From: Minisyncoccia bacterium
GTDB taxonomy: Bacteria > Patescibacteriota > Minisyncoccia > Phycocordibacterales > UBA9973
Direction: 5' to 3'
Length of the DNA: 64,000 nt
NCBI GenBank assembly: GCA_039809245.1
Contig: JBDHUP010000004.1
Location: 12,599 to 76,598, forward strand
The notes beneath the pieces were generated by a model. That model was not told where the DNA came from. It searched no databases and was given only the letters and a program-made list of their open reading frames with translations. The position numbers and the translations under genes were made by a program. Positions within the stretch are counted from its first letter, which is position 1; each line of letters starts with the position of its first letter. Below, piece after piece: positions 3,993-63,200 of the stretch.

Positions 3993-5312
3993 ATGCCAAC
4001 TTATAGCAAACAAGCTCCAAAACGGAGCTCATATTCATCTGGTTCAAAGCAAGCCCCTAGAGGCCATTTTGGCGGTTCTAAGAGCCCATTTCCACCGTCT
4101 AAAGCTTCCTCATCACGACCAGCTTTCAGGACAGGGAATAAGCCATCCTTCGGGAGAGGTCGCCCATCAGGAGGAAATAATAGAAAGAGGAAAGGTAATT
4201 CATTTGAGCGTATTGATGTATCTAGATTTATTAGTAAAGCAACAATTGTTGAGAAAGAAGAGATATATCTCCCAACTCATACATTCAGTGATTTTGCTAT
4301 TGATGAGCGTTTAAAAACAGCTATCGCTAATAAGCAATATATTTATCCAAGTCCAATTCAGGATAAGGCTATACCACATGCTCTTCTTGGGCGTGATATT
4401 TTGGGTATTGCAAACACTGGTACAGGTAAGACTGCTGCTTTCTTAATACCTATTATTAATAAAATTCTAAAGAATCCTAAGGAGACTGCTATTATTATAG
4501 CCCCAACTCGAGAACTTGCACTTCAGATTGATAAAGAGTTTATAGAGTTCACACGTGGTATGAAAATGTGGTCAGTAGGGTGTGTAGGAGGAGCGCCGAT
4601 ATCTGCCCAGATTAAAAATTTACGTCGTGGATGCAACATTGTTATCGGTACACCAGGAAGGTTACTAGATCTAGTAAAGCGTAAAGAGATCGATCTTTCA
4701 GATACTCGCAGTATCGTTCTAGATGAAGCTGATAGAATGCTAGATATGGGATTTATAGATGATATAACTTATCTACTTGAGAAAACTGATAAAGAACGTC
4801 AGAGTTTCTTCTTCTCTGCAACATTACCAAAACCGATTGAAACTCTTATTGGTAAATTCTCAAATGACCCAGTTCGAGTAGTTGTGAAAACTAGAGACAC
4901 TTCAAAGAACGTAGAGCAAGATGTAGTTAGAGTTGCTCGGGGAGTAGATAAAATAGATGTTTTATCTGAATTACTCTCTGGTTCTGAATTTAAAAAAGTT
5001 GTAATCTTCTCTGAAATGAAACATGCTGTAGAAAAATTATCAAACGAATTAGTTAAGAGGGGATTTAAAGCAGGTTCAATTCATGGTGATAAGCGCCACA
5101 ATGAACGCCAAAGAACTCTTAAACGCTTCAAGGATGATGATCTAAACATCCTAGTTGCTACAGATGTAGCTGCACGCGGACTAGATATTCCAGATGTAAC
5201 TCATGTTATAAACTATGAGATACCACAAACATATGACACTTATGTCCACCGTATCGGCCGAACAGGCCGTGCAAATAAAAAAGGTATGGCTCTAACATTT
5301 GTGAATTCATAA
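3993..5312 (+). CDS. DEAD-box ATP-dependent RNA helicase with an RG/S-rich N-terminal extension
   Basis: Q motif, AxTGTGKT, PTRELA, DEAD (VLDEADRMLDMGF), SAT, and HRIGRTGR. The true start is probably at MPTYSK. Confidence 0.9.
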   Translation: MPTYSKQAPKRSSYSSGSKQAPRGHFGGSKSPFPPSKASSSRPAFRTGNKPSFGRGRPSGGNNRKRKGNSFERIDVSRFISKATIVEKEEIYLPTHTFSDFAIDERLKTAIANKQYIYPSPIQDKAIPHALLGRDILGIANTGTGKTAAFLIPIINKILKNPKETAIIIAPTRELALQIDKEFIEFTRGMKMWSVGCVGGAPISAQIKNLRRGCNIVIGTPGRLLDLVKRKEIDLSDTRSIVLDEADRMLDMGFIDDITYLLEKTDKERQSFFFSATLPKPIETLIGKFSNDPVRVVVKTRDTSKNVEQDVVRVARGVDKIDVLSELLSGSEFKKVVIFSEMKHAVEKLSNELVKRGFKAGSIHGDKRHNERQRTLKRFKDDDLNILVATDVAARGLDIPDVTHVINYEIPQTYDTYVHRIGRTGRANKKGMALTFVNS

Positions 5313-5326
5313 TTAAAATAAAATAT

Positions 5327-5358
5327 AAAACACCCATAAATTAATTTATGGGTGTTTT
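5327..5358. terminator. rho-independent terminator
   Basis: aaaacacccataaa-ttaa-tttatgggtgtttt hairpin. Confidence 0.55.
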
Positions 5359-5383
5359 ATATTTACGGCTCTGTCTTTGTTTT

Positions 5384-6811
5384 TTATAGGTTAGTTACAA
5401 AGATATTTTCATTTGATAGAGATGAATTACTAGAACCATCTTCTGATTTAATTACGAAGTAGTATAGAGTACTTGAATTAAGACCAGTAATTTCTAGTGA
5501 GTGTTCTGTTTTCAAAGTTTTATCTCCTACACTAGATGTAGAACCTAGATTCACATCAACCGGTGTATTAAGAGAATAAAATACTTCTGAAGTTGCGGGC
5601 TCGTTTGTCATCCATGTAATTGTACTACCTGAAGCTGAAACTTTTGTAGCTATATTACTAATTATAGGTGCAACAGTGTCAGTAGGATTTTCAGTAACAG
5701 TTATTTCCATTGATGAACTAGTTTTCTGGCCCTTACTATTTTCAACTGTAAAGTTTGCAGTGTATATTCCTGCTTTATTATATACATGTTCAAATGTTGA
5801 ACTTTGAATAAATATTGGCTGTTTAACTGAAAGTGCTTTTACAAACAAGTCATCGCCCCAATCTACTGAATAAGTAAGTGAATCATTGTTTGGATCATAA
5901 GCATTTACTTTAACAGTCTCAGTTTGTCCTACCACAACAGTTTTTGAGCCTGATAGACTTGTAATAACTGGAGAATTATCTGTAGATGCTGGTGTAGTGA
6001 ATGAAATCTCAGATGATATAGTTCTTCCATTCTTATTTGCTGAACCTACTACTACATAGTAAGTAGTTGATGGTTCAAGTCTATTTAGATTCATTTTGTG
6101 ATTTAGAACTTTACCGTGGTTACCTTTATTGGCTTTGATGTTTGTATTTACTGGAGAAGTAGTACTAATCCATAGCATACTTGAAGAACGGACATCTGTA
6201 TTCCATACTACTTTTGCATTATGGACCTTAACAGATTCAATAGATAAGTTACTTATGACTGGTAGACTAGCAGATTCACTTGTTACGTAAACTGTAACCG
6301 TTGAATTAGCTTTTTCTCCTGTACTATTACTTACTGTAAACTTTACAGTATATGCACCTTTATTTTGATAAGTGTGGGTAAATGTACTTGTCTGTACGAA
6401 AGCCTCTTGAGACATTCTTGAGAAGAGCTGTGAATCTTCATCGCCCCAATCTACTGAGTAGCTAAGACTTCCATTGTTTGGATCTGAAGCATTAACTTTC
6501 CATGTACCTTCCTGTCCAACTTTTAGGACAGTTGGAGCTGTTATACCAGAAATGTTTAATCCTGTACTAGCTAATGTTGAAGAATGAGATCTCTCTCCAA
6601 ACCAACCAGACAATCTCTTGAAAAAACCATGCTCATCGGAATCTTCGTCTTTATTTTTATTTAATTTTACTTTTGTACTTTGTTTTACTTCTATTTTATT
6701 TTCATTTTTATCATTATCAGCAAAACTTAATGATGGGATAGTTACAAGGACTAAAGCCATAATCAAACCTGTTGCTAATAATCTATTCTTTTGATTTTTA
6801 ATGTTTTTCAT
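5384..6811 (-). CDS. secreted protein with tandem PKD-like and Fn3-like repeats
   Basis: Signal peptide. Repeated motif SYSVDWGDxxS occurs twice, with Fn3-like beta-rich repeats. Confidence 0.6.
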   Translation of the reverse strand: MKNIKNQKNRLLATGLIMALVLVTIPSLSFADNDKNENKIEVKQSTKVKLNKNKDEDSDEHGFFKRLSGWFGERSHSSTLASTGLNISGITAPTVLKVGQEGTWKVNASDPNNGSLSYSVDWGDEDSQLFSRMSQEAFVQTSTFTHTYQNKGAYTVKFTVSNSTGEKANSTVTVYVTSESASLPVISNLSIESVKVHNAKVVWNTDVRSSSMLWISTTSPVNTNIKANKGNHGKVLNHKMNLNRLEPSTTYYVVVGSANKNGRTISSEISFTTPASTDNSPVITSLSGSKTVVVGQTETVKVNAYDPNNDSLTYSVDWGDDLFVKALSVKQPIFIQSSTFEHVYNKAGIYTANFTVENSKGQKTSSSMEITVTENPTDTVAPIISNIATKVSASGSTITWMTNEPATSEVFYSLNTPVDVNLGSTSSVGDKTLKTEHSLEITGLNSSTLYYFVIKSEDGSSNSSLSNENIFVTNL

Positions 6812-39767: not shown

Positions 39768-39850
39768 AATTTTTATTCCGCAACGCGGTGTTATTGATAA
39801 ATGAACCTCTATTATATCATACGAGTAAATATTGCAACACTTGACACCTG

Positions 39851-39921
39851 TGCGGGATACGAGAATCGAACTCGTGTCTCAACCTTGGGAAGGTCGCATG
39901 CTACCACTATACCAATCCCGC
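39851..39921 (-). tRNA. tRNA-Gly (anticodon CCC)
   Basis: GCGGGAT acceptor, anticodon arm CGACC-TTCCCAA-GGTTG, T arm ACGAG-TTCGATT-CTCGT. The D stem is weak. Confidence 0.68.
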
Positions 39922-56185: not shown

Positions 56186-57319
56186 CTATTTTATGATCCT
56201 AGGTAGAAGTGGGTTTATTCGAGTCGTAACCTCATAGTTAATAGTTTGTGTTTTGTTAGCTATATCCTCAGAGGTTATAGTTTCACCCTTCTGGGAGCCC
56301 AGTATTACTACCTCATCTTCAGGTTTTACGCCCTTTATATGGCTTACATCTACTACGAACATATTCATAGCTACACGCCCCAAAATAGGTGCATTCTTCC
56401 CTTTTATTAAGACAGAGCCATTGTTTGAAGAGAGTCTGTTTACTCCGTTTGAATACCCTTGTGGGATGACAGCTATCATCATATTCTTTCTTGTTGTAAA
56501 TGAAGTCCCGTAGCCGATAGATTCACCGACTGGGATTTCTTTCACTTGAGCCACATGAGTGACATAGCGCATCACAGGCTTGAGCTCTATCTTCTTCTGC
56601 CACATTTTCTTCAAATTCTCACTTGGCCACATACCATAGAGTCCGACACCGACGCGGACAATAGCGTTGTATCCATTCCACTTCTCATAAGCGAGCACTC
56701 CAGAAGTTGCCGACATATGAGTCTTAATATTTTTGAATCCATTCTCTCTGAATAACTTTACGGCTTCTTCGTAAGCCTTGATCTGCTTTGACGCATAAGT
56801 GAAGTCAGTCGTATCTTCGATGTTCGCAAAGTGCGCATAGATTCCATCTACACTTATATTCTTCATCTTCTTTATTTCTTTTATGAAAGTCGCCACTTGC
56901 GAAGGAAGAATCCCCTCACGACCCAAGTGCGCATCGATACTGACATGCACTTTCTGCTTCACTCCTAATTTCCGAGCACTTTCATTTATAAGTAGTGCGT
57001 GGTGTAGATCAAACACAGTTAAAATACATCCGAGCTTTATGGCTTCTTTTATATCGCTCTTGCCTACGTAACCAAGAAGAAGTATCGGCTTCTTAGTAAC
57101 TTGTCGGACTTTCTCTAATTCTTCCACACTGTTTATCTGAAAATAATCTACATATGGAGCAAGAATCTTCACTACTTCCAAGTCACCGTGACCGTAAGCA
57201 TTAGCTTTCACCACTCCTGCAATCTTTGTCCCTCTTTTCACAATACGTCGAAACTGCTTGATATTATGGATCAGATTTTTCTTACTTAATTCTATATATG
57301 ATAATGGAAGACTTTTCAT
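56186..57319 (-). CDS. alr: alanine racemase
   Basis: PLP site VVKANAYGHG and a C-terminal beta domain. Start set at MKSLPLSY; the longer track ORF runs into tRNA-Leu. Confidence 0.85.
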   Translation of the reverse strand: MKSLPLSYIELSKKNLIHNIKQFRRIVKRGTKIAGVVKANAYGHGDLEVVKILAPYVDYFQINSVEELEKVRQVTKKPILLLGYVGKSDIKEAIKLGCILTVFDLHHALLINESARKLGVKQKVHVSIDAHLGREGILPSQVATFIKEIKKMKNISVDGIYAHFANIEDTTDFTYASKQIKAYEEAVKLFRENGFKNIKTHMSATSGVLAYEKWNGYNAIVRVGVGLYGMWPSENLKKMWQKKIELKPVMRYVTHVAQVKEIPVGESIGYGTSFTTRKNMMIAVIPQGYSNGVNRLSSNNGSVLIKGKNAPILGRVAMNMFVVDVSHIKGVKPEDEVVILGSQKGETITSEDIANKTQTINYEVTTRINPLLPRIIK

Positions 57320-57321
57320 TG

Positions 57322-57403
57322 TGCCGGAGGAGAGACTTGAACTCTCATCCCTTGCGAGACGCGATTTTGAGTCGCGCGCGTATACCAATTCCGCCACTCC
57401 GGC
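57322..57403 (-). tRNA. tRNA-Leu (anticodon CAA), class II with long variable arm
   Basis: GCCGGAG acceptor, 3-bp D stem, anticodon arm CGCGA-CTCAAAA-TCGCG, long variable arm, T arm GAGAG-TTCAAGT-CTCTC. 82 nt, no CCA. Confidence 0.85.
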
Positions 57404-57432
57404 ATACAAGAAATATACCTCAACTTAAGAAT

Positions 57433-58496: not shown

Positions 58497-60008
58497 ATGA
58501 AAAAACAATCAGATCAGCAAAAAATAGGCTTTTTTATTAAGGAATTAAGGGAAAAACGTAAATTAACCCAAGGAGCATTTGCCAAAGAACTAGGTACATC
58601 TCAGAGCGCCGTAGCCCGCATGGAGAAGGGTGAGCAGAACTTCACAACAGAGCTTCTGTCTAAAATAAGTACTGTCTTAGACCACCAGATAGTATCGATA
58701 AATGATTCTATAGATTTCCAAATCGTTGGTGGGAAGAAATTAAGTGGAAGTATTACAACCAGCTTCTCTAAAAATGGATCAGTTGGGCTTCTTTGTGCTT
58801 CCCTTCTGAATAAAGGTAAGACGACACTTCATGGTATCGCACGTATTGAAGAAGTTTATAGGGTTATAGAAATACTAGAGAGTATCGGTGTGAAAGTCTC
58901 TTGGATAAAGCAAAACTGTGTAGAAATAACACCGCCAAAGAAACTAAAACTTGAAAACTTGAACGTAGAGTCAGCGATAAAAACAAGATCTATAATTATG
59001 CTTATAGGTCCACTTATACATTTGCTTCCATCTTTCTCTATTCCCCACGCTTCGGGTTGCAACTTGGGTAAGCGAACTATCTCGGCACACAAATACGCTC
59101 TTGATGAATTGGGAGTTAAAATAAAAACTACAAATACATCCTACGACATAACAGTAAATACACTTAAGCCCGCAGACATAGTAATGTACGAGACTGGAGA
59201 TACCGCTTGTGAAAATGCTTTAATGGCTGCTGCCAAGATTGATGGTATAACAAAGATAGAGTGTGCTAGTGGAAACTACATGGTCCAAGAAGTTTGCTTC
59301 TTCTTGCAATCACTTGGAGTAGAGATTGAAGGTATAGGCACAGGTACTCTTACTATAAAAGGTAACCCTAATATAAATATGGATGCTGAATATCACAATA
59401 GTGAAGATCCTATTGAATCAATGATGTTTATATCTGCAGCTATCGCAACTGATTCTACTCTTACTATCAACCGCTGCCCTATCGACTTTCTTACGCTTGA
59501 ACTTTATAGATTAAAAAAGATGGGATTAAAATATAAAATCCTAAATAAATATCTATCGAAAAACGATAAAACAAAGCTCATAGATATAGAGATCCTGCCG
59601 AGTGTTCTGAAAGCTCCTTACGATAAAATCCACGCTAACCCATACCCAGGTATAAATATAGATAACCTTCCTTTCTTCGTGCCTATTGCTGTGCGTGCCG
59701 CTGGTACAACACTTATACATGACTGGTTCTACGAGAATCGTGCTATTTATGCTACAGAGCTTAACCGCCTAGGAGCAAGTGTTACTCTAGCCGACCCTCA
59801 CCGTGTATATATAACTGGTGGGACTCCTCTGACTTCAGCTCAAGTGGTCTGCCCTCCAGCACTCCGCCCTTCTATGGTTATCCTTATATCTATGCTTGCC
59901 GCAGAAGGTACTTCAATCCTTCGAAGTGTCTATATGATTAACCGTGGCTATGAAGATATAGCTCGTCGCTTGAACTCCATCGGTGCAGATATTACAATAC
60001 TTAAGTAA
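58497..60008 (+). CDS. murA: XRE-family HTH domain fused to UDP-GlcNAc 1-carboxyvinyltransferase MurA
   Basis: Residues 1-65 form a classic XRE HTH (LTQGAFAKELGTSQSAVARMEKG). The rest is the EPSP-synthase-fold MurA, with the catalytic Cys in SGCNLGKR and a C-terminal NRGYEDIARRL. Confidence 0.8.
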   Translation: MKKQSDQQKIGFFIKELREKRKLTQGAFAKELGTSQSAVARMEKGEQNFTTELLSKISTVLDHQIVSINDSIDFQIVGGKKLSGSITTSFSKNGSVGLLCASLLNKGKTTLHGIARIEEVYRVIEILESIGVKVSWIKQNCVEITPPKKLKLENLNVESAIKTRSIIMLIGPLIHLLPSFSIPHASGCNLGKRTISAHKYALDELGVKIKTTNTSYDITVNTLKPADIVMYETGDTACENALMAAAKIDGITKIECASGNYMVQEVCFFLQSLGVEIEGIGTGTLTIKGNPNINMDAEYHNSEDPIESMMFISAAIATDSTLTINRCPIDFLTLELYRLKKMGLKYKILNKYLSKNDKTKLIDIEILPSVLKAPYDKIHANPYPGINIDNLPFFVPIAVRAAGTTLIHDWFYENRAIYATELNRLGASVTLADPHRVYITGGTPLTSAQVVCPPALRPSMVILISMLAAEGTSILRSVYMINRGYEDIARRLNSIGADITILK

Positions 60009-60924
60009 TCTGCTTCTTAATTTTATATCCCTTACAATGTTTGAGTATACCTAGATACGATTGCTTTACTTCTGGTGGGACTTCTTTTTTGAATAGTCTT
60101 AACATTCGCTTCTTTGTATTTGTACGTAAGGTAGTATGGTAAGGAAAAATGACATACCCGAGGAAATCAATACCTTGAGACGCTTTCCTTATTTCTACTT
60201 TTCGTGGATGCAGAGATAATTTTAATTCAGTTTCTAAGAAATTAGAAACTCTTGGAATCAGTTTCTCTGTATATTCTCTATCTTTTGAGACTACTACAAA
60301 ATCATCACAATACCGGATATAGTGTTTTACTTTAAGTATATGTTTTACAAACTTATCAAATTCATTCAGATATACATTTGCAAAAAGCTGACTTGTGACA
60401 TTACCGAGCGGAAGACCACATCCTTTTGATTTTTCAAAACTTGAAATAATATTTTCAATCAACCAGTGAGTATCACGGTCTTCTATATACTTAAAAAGGA
60501 TATTTTTCAATATCACGTGGTTAATAGAGTCAAAGAACTTGGAGATGTCACACTTAAGCACCCAAATGTTCTGCGTATTATTCTTGCTTTCTTTGCGAAT
60601 GAATTCTCTAAGTCTTTCCACCCCTTTGTGCGTTCCTTTATTATTCCTACAAGAATATGAATCATAAATAAAAGTGGGGTCATATATTTTATACAATACT
60701 CGATATATTGCTTGATGTACTACCCTATCGCGAACATTCGCTTTATGTATATGCCGTCGCTTTGGATCATAAACATAGAAAGGGATATATGGCTGATTCT
60801 TATATATCTTATCTCGTAAGTTATAATGAAGATTGAATATATTACTCTCTAAATTAAAATCAAATTCTAAAACATCCTTCTTTTTATTCTTGCCTTTTTT
60901 GAATTCCCACCAAGCACCAAGCAA
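60001..60924 (-). CDS. DGR reverse transcriptase (N-terminus interrupted by a G10 tract; as called, it starts at TTG)
   Basis: RT motifs 1-7, including LPLGNVTSQLFANVYLNEFD (DGR hallmark [ILV]GxxxSQ, closely matching Bordetella phage bRT) and YCDDF. An ATG at 61009 becomes in-frame with 9 instead of 10 G. Confidence 0.85.
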   Translation of the reverse strand: MLGAWWEFKKGKNKKKDVLEFDFNLESNIFNLHYNLRDKIYKNQPYIPFYVYDPKRRHIHKANVRDRVVHQAIYRVLYKIYDPTFIYDSYSCRNNKGTHKGVERLREFIRKESKNNTQNIWVLKCDISKFFDSINHVILKNILFKYIEDRDTHWLIENIISSFEKSKGCGLPLGNVTSQLFANVYLNEFDKFVKHILKVKHYIRYCDDFVVVSKDREYTEKLIPRVSNFLETELKLSLHPRKVEIRKASQGIDFLGYVIFPYHTTLRTNTKKRMLRLFKKEVPPEVKQSYLGILKHCKGYKIKKQIT

Positions 60925-60966
60925 ATTTTCAATTGATATGATATTATTAAAAACACCATGAGTATA

Positions 60967-60976
60967 CCCCCCCCCC
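60967..60976. repeat. homopolymeric C10/G10 tract
   Basis: Ten consecutive C on the plus strand in a roughly 33% GC context. It lies inside the probable 5' coding region of the RT. Confidence 0.9.
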
Positions 60977-61051
60977 GACAGAATTATTGAGCTTCCTATC
61001 CTTGGTCATATAAAGAGATTATATAAAATCTTGTACCAAATAGGAATGAAA

Positions 61052-61339
61052 ATGCCTAAAAATAATAAACTCGGTATTCATAATGTTTTACAAGAAAAGT
61101 GTCTTGAAATACTTACGACTGTCGTAGATGCTTCACTTCGTTCAAAACAAGATAAAATTCCTTATCTTGTAAAAGCTCGTAGAGATATAGAAGTACTTAA
61201 ACATTTAGTTCGAATGGAGTACGAATTAGAAATCATAACAGAGAAGACATATCTAGCTAGTGCGCATATATTGCAAGACATTTCAATGATGGCAACAGGC
61301 TGGCAGAAATCACTGCAAACACAAAAGCCCTTGATGTAA
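61052..61339 (+). CDS. avd: Avd-like DGR accessory protein (putative)
   Basis: Basic helical protein of about 95-100 aa ending 25 nt upstream of the TR. RBS AGGAA lies before Met8. Orientation is opposite to the RT and target. Confidence 0.4.
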   Translation: MPKNNKLGIHNVLQEKCLEILTTVVDASLRSKQDKIPYLVKARRDIEVLKHLVRMEYELEIITEKTYLASAHILQDISMMATGWQKSLQTQKPLM

Positions 61340-61363
61340 ATCAAGAGCTTTTACGAGAAACTT

Positions 61364-61472
61364 CTGACGTGGACCGTTGTCGGGATTGCGATTGTCACGA
61401 TTGTCGTTGCTCACGTTGAACTGGTCATTGTCATTACGGTTCATGTTCAAAGCGTTGCCGTCGGAATCAAGT
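61364..61472 (-). repeat. DGR template repeat (TR)
   Basis: 109-nt repeat. In target-gene sense it reads ...GGC AAC GCT TTG AAC ATG AAC CGT AAT GAC AAT..., with 14 AAY codons. It is invariant relative to the VR except at A positions. Confidence 0.8.
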
Positions 61473-61702
61473 CTCTGTATGTAGTCATCTTTATCTCCGT
61501 GTATCGTTTACACAACACACTGTGTTATCTAGCTCTTTACTAGTCTTTGTTTAGAATCTTAATTTAATTCCCTAACTACATACAGGCAGTTTCTAAATAT
61601 TGGCGAACCGTCATCTCTTTAAAGATCAGCTCAACAGCCGTTTATAGTATATATAAAAAATTCCCCTTGGCAAAATAAATTGCAAAGGGGAAAAGTTAAA
61701 AG

Positions 61703-62467
61703 CTACGCAGTTTTAGAAAGCTTAAGCTGACGTGGACCGTGGACGGGATAGCGATTGACACGAAGGCCGAGGCACACGTTGAACCGGTCATAGTCATAAC
61801 AGAGCATGCCCAAAGCGTAGCCGTCGGAATCAAGTGCATGGAAGCGGGTCAAACCTTTTACGTCCAACATGTTGCCTGTTTCAAACCTTTCACGGAAAGC
61901 GGCAATAATACCTTCTTTCGGAATCATGTAATCGTTGCCATCATTGCAAAAATCATCATAACTCTTATTGAGGTGCTCTGTATCAGGCTCGATAGTTCCT
62001 GCCCAAGCAAAGCAATAGTTGCCTTTTGGACGATCCTGCTGTGTATCTATTGCATTATCCGGATTCTGCGAATATGAATTGCTGGAAACTTTATCGTCAC
62101 CAAATTTTTTCTTATAAGCAGTAATATATCGCTTGCAATTAAAACCTGCGTGAACGTATTCCAACCGCGGAAATTTTTTATCATATTCGGGTAATGTTGT
62201 GGTAGACCAGTCTATAATATGATTGAAGTTGCTTTTGTAAAAGCGTTCAATCTTTTTCTTCTGGTCAGCCCAAGGGTCAATTTCTATAGCAAGTAATTTT
62301 GCTACAATTTTAGCCGTGGCGTTTTCAACAAGTTTTTCATCTCCGAGAATTTGTTGCATTTCTCCTAAATTGAAATGTCCATCAATGGCATTAATAACAC
62401 CATTGGAAATAGTGAGGCCTAAGCGTGCATATTGCGCGCCAGTAGCCGGGATTTTCGCGTTGTTCAT
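61703..62467 (-). CDS. DGR target (variable) protein, 254 aa, VR at C-terminus
   Basis: The ORF's last roughly 45 codons include the VR. About 20 TR/VR differences, all but one at TR adenines. Confidence 0.75.
   Translation of the reverse strand: MNNAKIPATGAQYARLGLTISNGVINAIDGHFNLGEMQQILGDEKLVENATAKIVAKLLAIEIDPWADQKKKIERFYKSNFNHIIDWSTTTLPEYDKKFPRLEYVHAGFNCKRYITAYKKKFGDDKVSSNSYSQNPDNAIDTQQDRPKGNYCFAWAGTIEPDTEHLNKSYDDFCNDGNDYMIPKEGIIAAFRERFETGNMLDVKGLTRFHALDSDGYALGMLCYDYDRFNVCLGLRVNRYPVHGPRQLKLSKTA
61727..61835 (-). repeat. DGR variable repeat (VR)
   Basis: Direct-repeat partner of the TR, encoding ...LDSDGYALGMLCYDYDRFNVCLGLRVNRYPVHGPRQ. The TR encodes N at most varied codons. Confidence 0.8.
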
Positions 62468-62603
62468 AACTCTGCGTTTTTGTTTTAATGTAAAGAACTA
62501 GAGGGTAAAAGAGTATTACCATATTTGTTCTATATTATACACCTAAAATAAGCTTATGTCAATAATACATAATTCCTTTCAAATAAAGCTTTTTAGGCTA
62601 TAA

Positions 62604-63200
62604 TTGGCTTATATGGCGAAAATGTCTAATCGTGAGAAGCTTGATGAATTAAATACATACTGGCAGGAGCATTGTACTTGTGAGCTAAAAAAGACTGCAA
62701 CACAAGCTGTCTTTGGTGATGGAAATGCTGATAGCGATATAGTTTTCATTGGTGAAGCACCAGGTAAGAATGAAGACCTCGAAGGTAGGCCTTTTGTCGG
62801 AGCTGGGGGTAAATTCTTAGCTGAAATGCTTGAGAGTATAAAAATGAAACGAGAAGATATCTATATTACCAACATTGTAAAATATCGCCCACCGAACAAT
62901 CGTGATCCTCTACCAGAAGAAAAAGAAGCTTGTAATGAATGGCTTATGAGTGAACTCAAAATAATTAACCCAAAGTTAATAGTATTCCTAGGTCGCCACT
63001 CAATGATGCGATTCTTCCCTGAAGAAAAAATATCGGATGTTCATGGAAAACTTTTGATAAAAAATATTACGGAACTTAATAAGAAGCAAGCCTTCCTCCC
63101 TCTCTACCACCCAGCGGCCGCACTATACAACGGAGGCTTACGCGAAACATTAATTAAAGATTTTAAGAAAATCCCAAAAGCACTATTAAAACTTGGGTAA
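62604..63200 (+). CDS. uracil-DNA glycosylase, family 4
   Basis: GEAPG motif (FIGEAPGKNED), HPAA motif, and Cys residues for an Fe-S cluster. Confidence 0.8.
   Translation: MAYMAKMSNREKLDELNTYWQEHCTCELKKTATQAVFGDGNADSDIVFIGEAPGKNEDLEGRPFVGAGGKFLAEMLESIKMKREDIYITNIVKYRPPNNRDPLPEEKEACNEWLMSELKIINPKLIVFLGRHSMMRFFPEEKISDVHGKLLIKNITELNKKQAFLPLYHPAAALYNGGLRETLIKDFKKIPKALLKLG

Follow-up and report, generated by a model that had tools for sequence, protein, structure and literature searches.

The reverse transcriptase (RT) gene in the 64-kb stretch of DNA analysed here (the window) has its conserved start codon and its conserved body in different reading frames, with a run of ten G residues between them. 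Two questions are treated here: whether the locus is a genuine diversity-generating retroelement (DGR), as had been claimed in a first-pass annotation, and what the G tract may do to the expression of its RT.

The repeats, the proteins and the order of the genes

The first-pass annotation had described a DGR with an RT, an Avd-like protein, a template repeat (TR) and a target protein bearing a variable repeat (VR). The repeats are found where it had placed them. The 109-nt TR (61364..61472, - strand) is intergenic and non-coding and lies 355 nt from the RT start, and the VR, of the same length (61727..61835, - strand), makes up codons 211-247 of the 254-codon target gene (61703..62467, - strand), at its 3' end. 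When the two are aligned on the - strand (61472..61364 against 61835..61727), no gap is needed over 109 nt and 19 positions mismatch. TR adenines account for 18 of these (A>T 10, A>G 4, A>C 4), and the other is a C>T change. A repeat search of 59900-62700 has revealed no other long repeat, and each conserved repeat end occurs in exactly 2 copies in the window, compared with a chance expectation of ~0.03. The 3'-terminal 14 nt of TR and VR (ACGGTCCACGTCAG), as candidate IMH/IMH* sequences, are identical and carry no mutation; beyond them the flanks differ, with CTTAAGCTTTCT following the VR and AAGTTTCT following the TR. The TR contains 35 adenines, and 33 of the 34 that are in frame occupy codon positions 1 or 2; 11 of its 36 codons are AAY. 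Relative to the TR, the VR specifies 15 amino-acid differences, which fall within residues 217-243 of the target. The adenine bias is family-wide, since 1427 of 1499 TR/VR mismatches in 80 related loci (95%) lie at TR adenines. Furthermore, activity in a relative is indicated by one strain seen in six samples, which across them has two VR alleles with 20 differing positions, all within the VR, while the TR and the spacer are identical. The sole second assembly of the present locus, which is independent, has an identical VR.

For the C-terminus of the target, a test for a C-type-lectin/FGE-like fold had been proposed, and structure prediction models the domain bearing the VR as a C-type-lectin fold. 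By this model, the target is a C-type-lectin-fold DGR variable protein. It has no match to the FGE-sulfatase or DUF1566 families of Pfam, no evident signal peptide and no detectable sequence similarity to Treponema denticola TvpA, Thermus TaqVP or the FGE-type CLec variable proteins. Its N-terminus is a helical region of ~100 residues. Ahead of the gene, a putative promoter, TTGACA-17-TATAAT (62534..62562, - strand), matches the consensus at 12/12 positions. Directly after the target stop codon and ~37 nt beyond the VR, CCCCTTTGC and GCCAAGGGG form a hairpin that is followed by a T-run (61663..61690, - strand) and that was missed by a terminator scan because its loop is 10 nt long. From its sequence, this hairpin is likely to be a terminator and is possibly the DGR hairpin found downstream of a VR.

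The RT body (60001..60966, - strand; Pfam RVT_1, 90 bits) has a DGR-type motif 4 ([LIV]GxxxSQ), in which LGNVTSQ replaces the QGxxxSP of group II RTs. Both LGNVTSQ (in 15 family members) and YCDD are invariant. Its best PDB match is Bordetella bRT (8ub7, 143 bits, E 1e-40), whereas group II, retron-type and Drt RTs score at most 84 bits, with E values of 1e-22 or worse for the group II and retron-type enzymes. Homologs number more than 7900, and those with names come from MAGs of Paceibacterota, Nomurabacteria and Patescibacteria. Thus, the earlier assignment to the DGR RTs stands. The 307-aa ORF is present as annotated (60001-60924, - strand) but is N-terminally truncated, beginning at an internal TTG at 60924, while conserved sequence reaches upstream to the tract and the conserved start is ATG 61009.

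It might be argued that there is no DGR here but only an RT of the group II intron or retron kind near a chance repeat, because the NCBIfam model that scores highest, with 151 bits, is that of the group II intron RT/maturase and homologs are labelled "retron-type" in some source databases. However, 151 bits is far under the 300-bit cutoff of that model, the retron model gives 63 bits against a cutoff of 235, and the RT has no maturase or endonuclease extension. In addition, Rfam matches nothing in 60800-62000 at E values of 1 or below, intron and retron RNA families included. These sub-cutoff scores, together with the SQ motif, bRT as the best solved relative and the adenine-specific repeats, refute a group II intron or retron identity, to which we assign practically no probability.

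An Avd-like ORF is present as claimed, but on the + strand, the reverse of that carrying RT, TR and target (95 aa, 61052..61339, from ATG 61052; the ORF list has the start at TTG 61031). It scores under the curated cutoffs, with 37.5 bits for Pfam bAvd (cutoff 40) and 40.9 bits for NCBIfam DivGenRetAVD (cutoff 80), and PF22296 is found in its homologs. A search of the PDB with the Avd-family sequence profile found no relative. The structural model (pLDDT 88), which consists of three long helices, does have an Avd-like fold: Foldseek gives TM scores of 0.74-0.81 to 2rld, 2gsc and bAvd (4dwl), with three helices instead of four.

The order on the - strand is the target with its 3' VR, the terminator-like hairpin, the TR RNA gene, avd on the opposite strand and finally RT. 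In window coordinates, a TR upstream of a reverse-strand avd and then of RT is what defines architecture B3 (PMC5758913), and TR-(avd)-RT constitutes 90% of that study's CPR set (Wu et al. 2018, PMC5758913). The same layout is also seen in relatives L001-L003 and L127, and the VR-TR-(avd)-RT arrangement is kept in 80 of 99 non-redundant related loci. Because this layout has been reported as typical of CPR DGRs, the element belongs to a known kind. The neighbouring gene is murA, as previously noted (NF006873, 305.7 bits, cutoff 297), and its product carries an N-terminal HTH. Taken together, the repeats, the RT motif, the bRT match and the modelled target fold confirm the earlier claim, and there is little doubt that the locus is a genuine, chromosomal DGR of the Patescibacteria (CPR) lineage, situated between murA and a gene for a family-4 uracil-DNA glycosylase. 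A DGR as such is ordinary for CPR bacteria.

The RNA around the template repeat

Directly 5' of the TR lies a conserved structured RNA domain (61466..61599, - strand), to which covariance model R1 gives its sole match in the window (101 bits, E 1e-18). The P1 arms (61583-61574 and 61486-61477, - strand) enclose hairpins P2-P4, and P1-P4 are present in the MFE structure predicted for the window RNA. Pairing is kept in 94% of the P1 and P4 cells. Changes on both sides affect 170 cells, compared with 47 after shuffling, and none of 500 shuffles attains the observed value. A further helix, P0, joins GAAACUGC (61593-61586, - strand) to GAAGUUUC (61357..61364, - strand) at the 3' edge of the TR. In 33 loci, this eight-position helix is kept, one of its positions being a conserved G.A, and its flanking pair covaries, being paired in 25/33 loci versus 15.0 +/- 2.5 after shuffling (0 of 2000 shuffles reach the observed value).

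A promoter-like site, TTGCCA-16-TATACT (61646..61673, - strand; 10/12 consensus match), could serve a separate TR RNA. On the other side of the TR, the sequence and the MFE fold show a stem-loop with a tetraloop, followed by a T-run in the TR sense (61323..61352), which overlaps the avd stop codon; in relatives, GC-rich hairpins with T-runs likewise follow the TR. This stem-loop is likely to be a bidirectional terminator. By analogy with the Bordetella RNA used for comparison (bioRxiv 10.1101/2023.10.23.563531), it is possibly also the counterpart of the Avd-binding stem-loop downstream of TRs.

These features have led to a model in which the TR RNA is its own unit, composed of the promoter-like site, the ~130-nt structured domain, the 109-nt TR, the closing helix and the terminator hairpin. 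Such an RNA would be bound by RT-Avd, and cDNA synthesis would be primed in cis at the TR 3' end. Priming would take place at the P0 helix if the analogy holds with Bordetella, in which an Sp:TR primer duplex is followed by G57-C58 and then by the stop duplex. During cDNA synthesis, the RT would miscopy adenines; the cDNA would then replace the VR, and up to about 15-20 residues (217-243) would be recoded on the predicted C-type-lectin-fold binding surface.

With the DGR of Bordetella phage BPP-1 (mtd-avd-TR-brt; 8ub7-8ube), the locus shares the RT family and its SQ motif, a putative Avd-like partner, adenine-specific transfer from TR to VR and a CLec-fold target with a C-terminal VR. In both RNAs, a short helix at the TR 3' end is followed by "GC" and then by a helix abutting the TR 5' end, so that the local topology here is that of BPP-1 Sp47-56:TR118-129, G57-C58 and the avd:Sp "cPRT stop" duplex. 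However, the structured RNA here is 5' of the TR, whereas the BPP-1 Sp is 3'. Consequently, the RNA domain together with the TR resembles, by this analogy, an apparent circular permutation of the Bordetella DGR RNA. The present element differs further in that its avd lies on the opposite strand and encodes a product about one helix shorter, its TR RNA appears to be a separate transcription unit, it is chromosomal rather than phage-borne, and a homopolymer separates its RT start from the RT body.

The G tract and the reading frame of the reverse transcriptase

The conserved ATG 61009 opens the leader codons MTKDRKLNNSV (60977..61009, - strand), and an M-[NDE]-[NDQ]-R-like peptide is kept in relatives, both where it shares the frame of the RT body and where it does not. 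The divergent avd/RT intergenic region (61010..61051) contains a conserved TATAAT 9 nt ahead of the RT ATG, which may act as a promoter, and the intergenic ...TTTTATATAATCTCTTTATATG is conserved in L001-L003 and L127. Since this region has no Shine-Dalgarno sequence and the TATAAT lies so close to the ATG, the sequence suggests that the RT mRNA is leaderless or near-leaderless. The G10 homopolymer (C10 on the + strand; 60967..60976, - strand) encodes a conserved Gly-Gly-Gly. As assembled, this tract puts ATG 61009 in another frame than the RT body, although the body itself is intact; G9 or G12 would bring the leader into frame. In the body frame, there is no ATG, GTG or TTG from the upstream stop to the conserved N-terminal helix of RT. 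Consequently, the element is probably "off" in the sequenced population or expressed via slippage only. The frameshift bears on current activity, not on membership in the DGR family.

Homopolymers are prone to errors, and one G fewer gives a full-length RT with the conserved N-terminus; thus, it could be postulated that G10 is a sequencing or assembly error and that a true G9 makes RT an intact 335-aa gene. However, the same G10 is present in an independent Logan assembly. Out-of-frame tracts are also found in 41 of 58 relatives, from many groups and pipelines, and the out-of-frame state repeats across samples of one population (L088 and L116, both G9). We therefore consider an error of this kind unlikely. 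The frameshift and the lack of a canonical start in the body frame might instead mark a decaying remnant, with RT as a pseudogene and VR differences that date from the past. Yet the sole lesion is the repeat tract: the RT body, the catalytic motifs, Avd, TR, the structured RNA with its 101-bit match and the target ORF are all intact. Furthermore, the same pattern is seen in dozens of species, a recurrence that fits a switch better than independent decay, and decay is, in our judgment, quite improbable.

The distribution of such tracts could reflect a hypermutable switch under selection, in which a slipped-strand change in length, or slippage by RNA polymerase or the ribosome, would join the leader ATG to the RT body. 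G10 is the only G/C run of at least 7 in the window, where GGG makes up just 14% of glycine codons. In 73 of 99 non-redundant related loci, a G7-G13 tract is found upstream of the conserved RT body, at a distance of no more than 145 nt, compared with 5 G/C runs of at least 7 outside the tract site in 576 kb of the same loci. In 5 further loci, the tract site holds (GA)6-13, (AG)11 or (CT)18, so that some repeat is present in 78/99. The ORF includes the tract in 58 related loci. Of these, only 16 have the conserved leader ATG in frame, while a change of -1/+2 nt would be required in 30 and one of +1/-2 nt in 11, yet 57 have an intact RT body ORF of 304-348 codons. The TR/VR adenine bias is alike in the in-frame and out-of-frame loci. 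In addition, one and the same strain has G9 in five of its samples but G10 in a sixth, and two related species that share the leader MNNWQLDAC have G7 and G9, on either side of the in-frame G8.

Other results are less compatible with a switch. Four other near-identical contig groups, from different samples, each have a constant tract length, and the frame states are unevenly represented (chi-square about 10), the "+1 nt" state being in excess. A sister subclade has its tract upstream of what appears to be the RT start codon; consequently, one mechanism may not fit all. The cognate tRNA-Gly(CCC) is present, so there is no special reason for ribosomal stalling on the tract. On balance, we put selection of these repeats as a hypermutable switch at even chances; it would refine, not replace, the DGR explanation. 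Judged from sequence comparison, the conserved tract may be a contingency switch, by phase variation or slippage, that turns mutagenesis on and off.

Relation to known elements and significance

The poly-G contingency loci of Neisseria, Haemophilus and Campylobacter (PMC4965091, PMC5084427) likewise have a G8-G13 tract a few codons past the start, all three frame states among genomes, an intact downstream ORF and, in some lineages, other repeat types. Here, in contrast, the putative switch occurs in CPR bacteria that are uncultivated, would gate a gene that is itself a mutator, the DGR RT, and is proposed from sequence comparison. With the B3 DGRs of CPR/Patescibacteria (PMC5758913) and DGR clade 2 (Roux et al. 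2021, PMC8144416), the locus shares gene order and orientation, the host group, a target without known domains and RT homologs in the thousands; it is one more B3 CPR DGR, with no essential difference. The structured RNA 5' of the TR matches no Rfam family, and neither it nor the RT 5' repeat tract was found in Rfam or the searchable literature; no description of the RT 5' SSR and the structured RNA was found in PMC5758913 or PMC8144416.

These considerations have led to a tentative proposal, which we rate at somewhat under even odds: a CPR DGR lineage combines an RT gated by a hypermutable repeat (stochastic on/off, through phase variation or slippage) with a circularly permuted DGR RNA that has an Sp-like scaffold and a primer strand 5' of the TR. 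If the permutation is real, the Bordetella ribonucleoprotein design tolerates rearrangement, and the compact, separately transcribed template RNA of ~330 nt is potentially useful in engineering. If the RT is indeed gated, the frequent truncation or splitting of such RT genes by automated annotation would be explained. Targeted hypermutation would itself be stochastically switched, and a repeat-length switch on the RT would provide a simple way to restrain DGR mutagenesis after a useful variant arises.

A routine DGR beside murA

The first-pass annotation had described a complete diversity-generating retroelement (DGR) with a 109-nt repeat pair, and the pair is borne out: on the minus strand, the template repeat (TR, 61472..61364) and the variable repeat (VR, 61835..61727) align over 109 nt with no gap and 19 mismatches. 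The adenine bias that it had posed as a check is also seen, with 18 of the 19 mismatches at adenines of the TR, the copy proximal to the reverse transcriptase (RT) gene (A>T 10, A>G 4, A>C 4), and the remaining one a C>T change. A repeat search found this pair to be the sole long repeat of the DGR region. Furthermore, each of the two conserved repeat ends is present in exactly two copies in the 64-kb window (chance expectation ~0.03), and a search with both ends revealed no additional VR there; consequently, the element has a single VR. The TR has 35 adenines. Read in the target frame, it gives LDSDGNALNMNRNDNDQFNVSNDNRDNRNPDNGPRQ; AAY accounts for 11 of its 36 codons, and 33 of the 34 in-frame adenines occupy codon positions 1 or 2. 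The TR-encoded and VR-encoded targets differ at 15 residues, which lie within 217-243.

The ORFs listed earlier are all present in the window. The RT ORF carries an RVT_1 domain (Pfam), and its proposed likeness to the RT of Bordetella phage BPP-1 (bRT) holds, since bRT is its best solved relative (8ub7, 143 bits, E 1e-40), far ahead of RTs of the group II and retron types (at most 84 bits). It scores under the cutoff of all NCBIfam RT models (for group II, 151 versus 300). The LGNVTSQ motif is present as claimed and, like YCDD, does not vary across the RT family; there are >7900 homologs, and those sources that give names list Paceibacterota, Nomurabacteria or Patescibacteria MAGs. The target protein has no match in Pfam, NCBIfam or PDB sequence searches. 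The accessory gene is an Avd-like ORF on the plus strand. The model of its product consists of three long helices and superposes on the Avd family (2rld, 2gsc) and bAvd of BPP-1 (4dwl, 8ube) with TM 0.74-0.81. Its scores in Pfam (37.5, curated cut-off 40) and NCBIfam (40.9, curated cut-off 80) fall just short. A profile of the family finds no relative among PDB sequences, and the Avd assignment is thus based on the sub-threshold HMM matches and the fold.

The DGR does adjoin murA, with murB further out. MurA (58497-60008) scores above the NF006873 cutoff and has an N-terminal Cro/C1-type HTH fused to it (residues about 10-65); the same 501-aa HTH-MurA fusion is also found in the syntenic relative L001, which shares the order UDG-target-avd-RT-murA. 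The family-4 uracil-DNA glycosylase (UDG) gene (62604-63200) lies directly beside the target in both, probably by coincidence, since other relatives have different neighbours. Elsewhere, the alr ORF as mechanically listed (56186-57409) has a 5' extension that contains a tRNA-Leu(CAA) (57321-57403), and the true start of alr must therefore be further downstream.

The order target/VR, TR, avd (reverse strand within this order) and RT is repeated in L001 and in three further related loci, L002, L003 and L127, which keep it in different genomic contexts. Of 99 non-redundant related loci, 80 have a detectable VR/TR pair that precedes the RT and shares its strand, and 1427 of the 1499 mismatches in these 80 are at TR adenines. 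The arrangement matches architecture B3, TR-(avd)-RT, which makes up 90% of the set from the CPR (the Patescibacteriota) in Wu et al. and is nearly absent elsewhere (PMC5758913), and DGRs of the CPR belong to clade 2 of Roux et al. (PMC8144416). Given this match and placement, the window DGR is one more example of an established type; the earlier finding is correct, and the element is a routine CPR DGR. L002 also encodes a second target-family paralogue of 264 aa downstream of its RT (5197-5991), which was rejected as a second target because a search at E up to 1e-3 revealed no VR in it that matches the TR.

One strain, recognised in six samples (L127-L132) by its identical Avd, shows directly that such elements of the lineage diversify. 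It has two VR alleles, the deviating one carried by L132, with 20 differing positions that all lie within the VR; the TR and spacer are identical. The sole second assembly of the window locus (Logan, SRR19427084) is an identical contig, VR included.

A repeat tract at the 5' end of the RT gene

The 307-aa RT ORF exists as described, from a TTG at 60924, but this is not the conserved beginning of the protein. The alignment to bRT begins only at bRT residue 19, and full-length homologs extend further upstream (M-x-N-N-R-x-L...GGG..H..F..IIS.ENLL). The window encodes this N-terminus from an ATG at 61009 (minus strand), which a run of ten G residues (60967-60976, minus strand) shifts out of the frame of the RT body; from the upstream stop to the conserved helix, the window has no ATG, GTG or TTG in the body frame. 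A tract of G9 or G12 would yield an RT of 335 or 336 aa.

G10 is the only G/C run of at least 7 in the 64-kb window, where only 14% of glycine codons are GGG; the window also carries a tRNA-Gly(CCC) (39850-39921), which is cognate to the GGG codons of the tract. Conservation of the tract extends to the DNA itself. Of 99 related loci with 43-75% identity in the RT N-terminus, 73 carry a run of G7-G13 in the 145 nt that precede the RT body, and five others have (GA)6-13, (AG)11 or (CT)18 at the tract position. Thus, 78 of the 99 carry poly-G or a dinucleotide repeat at the RT 5' end; elsewhere in the same loci, G/C runs of at least 7 number five in 576 kb. Two loci present odd cases: L084 has no proximal tract and has a C10 run at 2139-2148, 862 nt upstream of the RT, and the contig of L095 opens (1-55) with a long imperfect poly-C right at the expected tract site, which looks like an artefact of assembly or sequencing there.

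Of the 58 loci whose tract lies within the ORF, 16 have the conserved leader ATG in frame. In 30, a group that includes the window, L001 and L002, a change of -1/+2 nt would be required to bring it into frame, in 11 a change of +1/-2 nt, and one locus lacks it. The RT body is open over 304-348 codons in 57 of the 58, and the TR/VR adenine bias is equal in in-frame and out-of-frame loci. Tract length also varies between close relatives: the tract of the six-sample strain is G10 in L130 and G9 in the other five samples, and two species with an identical leader peptide have G7 and G9, flanking the in-frame G8. One could propose that the out-of-frame tracts arise by random assembly error. However, this does not explain them, since the Logan assembly of the window locus also gives G10, and an out-of-frame G9 was found again in two samples (L088 and L116).

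Given its position early in the gene, its occurrence in three frames, the intact downstream ORF and the turnover of repeat type, the tract looks, as a sequence pattern, like a contingency locus. It might act through phase variation at the DNA level or through transcriptional or ribosomal slippage, all of which would be compatible with this pattern. Some tract states may be rescued by alternative starts: the full-length RT that the gene caller recovered in L130 begins at a TTG that precedes the ATG by 5 nt and lies in the shifted frame. The mechanism may be different in a sister subclade (N-terminus MKIQL...), whose apparent start codon comes 13-27 nt after the tract. Other roles have been rejected. 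Poly-G as a Shine-Dalgarno mimic fails both in the window, which has no in-frame start after the tract, and in this downstream-ATG subclade because of the 13-27 nt from tract to ATG. A strand-specific polypurine or G-specific RNA function is unlikely given (CT)18 at the tract site of one relative.

A structured RNA 5' of the template repeat

The VR-TR spacer is conserved among relatives. In an alignment of 34 sequences (A3), it contains P1, a 10-bp helix whose 3' arm abuts the TR, and P4, a hairpin. For these two helices, 94% of cells are paired, where shuffles give 67% and slid partners no more than 53%, and 170 cells are changed on both sides, versus 47 in shuffles; none of 500 shuffles reached the observed values. 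A further helix, P0, pairs GAAACUGC (61593-61586), at the 5' edge of the domain, with GAAGUUUC (61364-61357), at the 3' edge of the TR. Its core is nearly invariant, with a conserved G.A at one position, and its flanking pair covaries (A-U, U-A, G-C, C-G), being paired in 25 of 33 sequences versus 15.0 +/- 2.5 in shuffles (0 of 2000 reaching this value). P0, P1 and P4 are thus themselves supported by covariation. P2 and P3 come from the fold of a single sequence; the MAFFT alignment could not bring them into register, and no stacked complementary columns turned up in a scan.

A covariance model of the domain, which in the window matches 61599-61466 (minus strand, 101 bits), gives exactly one match per locus in 61 of 98 sources, including 27 sequences outside the seed alignment. 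All matches end at the TR, and all are on the RT strand except that of L046 (234-376, minus strand), which lies on the opposite strand about 2 kb upstream and may reflect a differently oriented TR unit. No Rfam family matches in 60800-62000.

The window RNA folds into P1-P4 and a long terminal hairpin (z = -3.1). Past the TR, a hairpin that precedes a T-run overlaps the avd stop codon; upstream, there is a promoter-like site (61673-61646, minus strand). Together, these signals suggest that the TR RNA would be its own transcript of ~330 nt rather than part of the RT transcript.

The primer:template duplex of the Bordetella RNP forms between Sp47-56 and TR118-129. After Sp47-56 come G57-C58 and then one strand of a second duplex, the "cPRT stop", which is completed by a strand immediately 5' of the TR (bioRxiv 10.1101/2023.10.23.563531). 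The window RNA likewise has a primer-like GAAACU, then GC, then a P1 strand whose partner is just 5' of the TR, as well as a template-like strand at the TR 3' end, so that the local topology is equal. In the window RNA, however, the scaffold lies upstream of the TR, an apparent circular permutation of the Bordetella arrangement. By this analogy, we infer that the window RNA may serve in a priming-type mechanism, for which the predicted priming nucleotide is at the U-G of GAAACUGC (61588-61587).

Neither the RT tract nor the RNA domain is mentioned in Wu et al., Roux et al. or the Mobile DNA review, and neither is described in the literature found on DGRs, although an earlier description may exist. 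Beyond a routine DGR, the locus thus adds a frameshifting repeat in the RT and a proposed permuted, separately transcribed TR RNA. Both features are lineage-wide, and both are open to testing by public reads or simple biochemistry.
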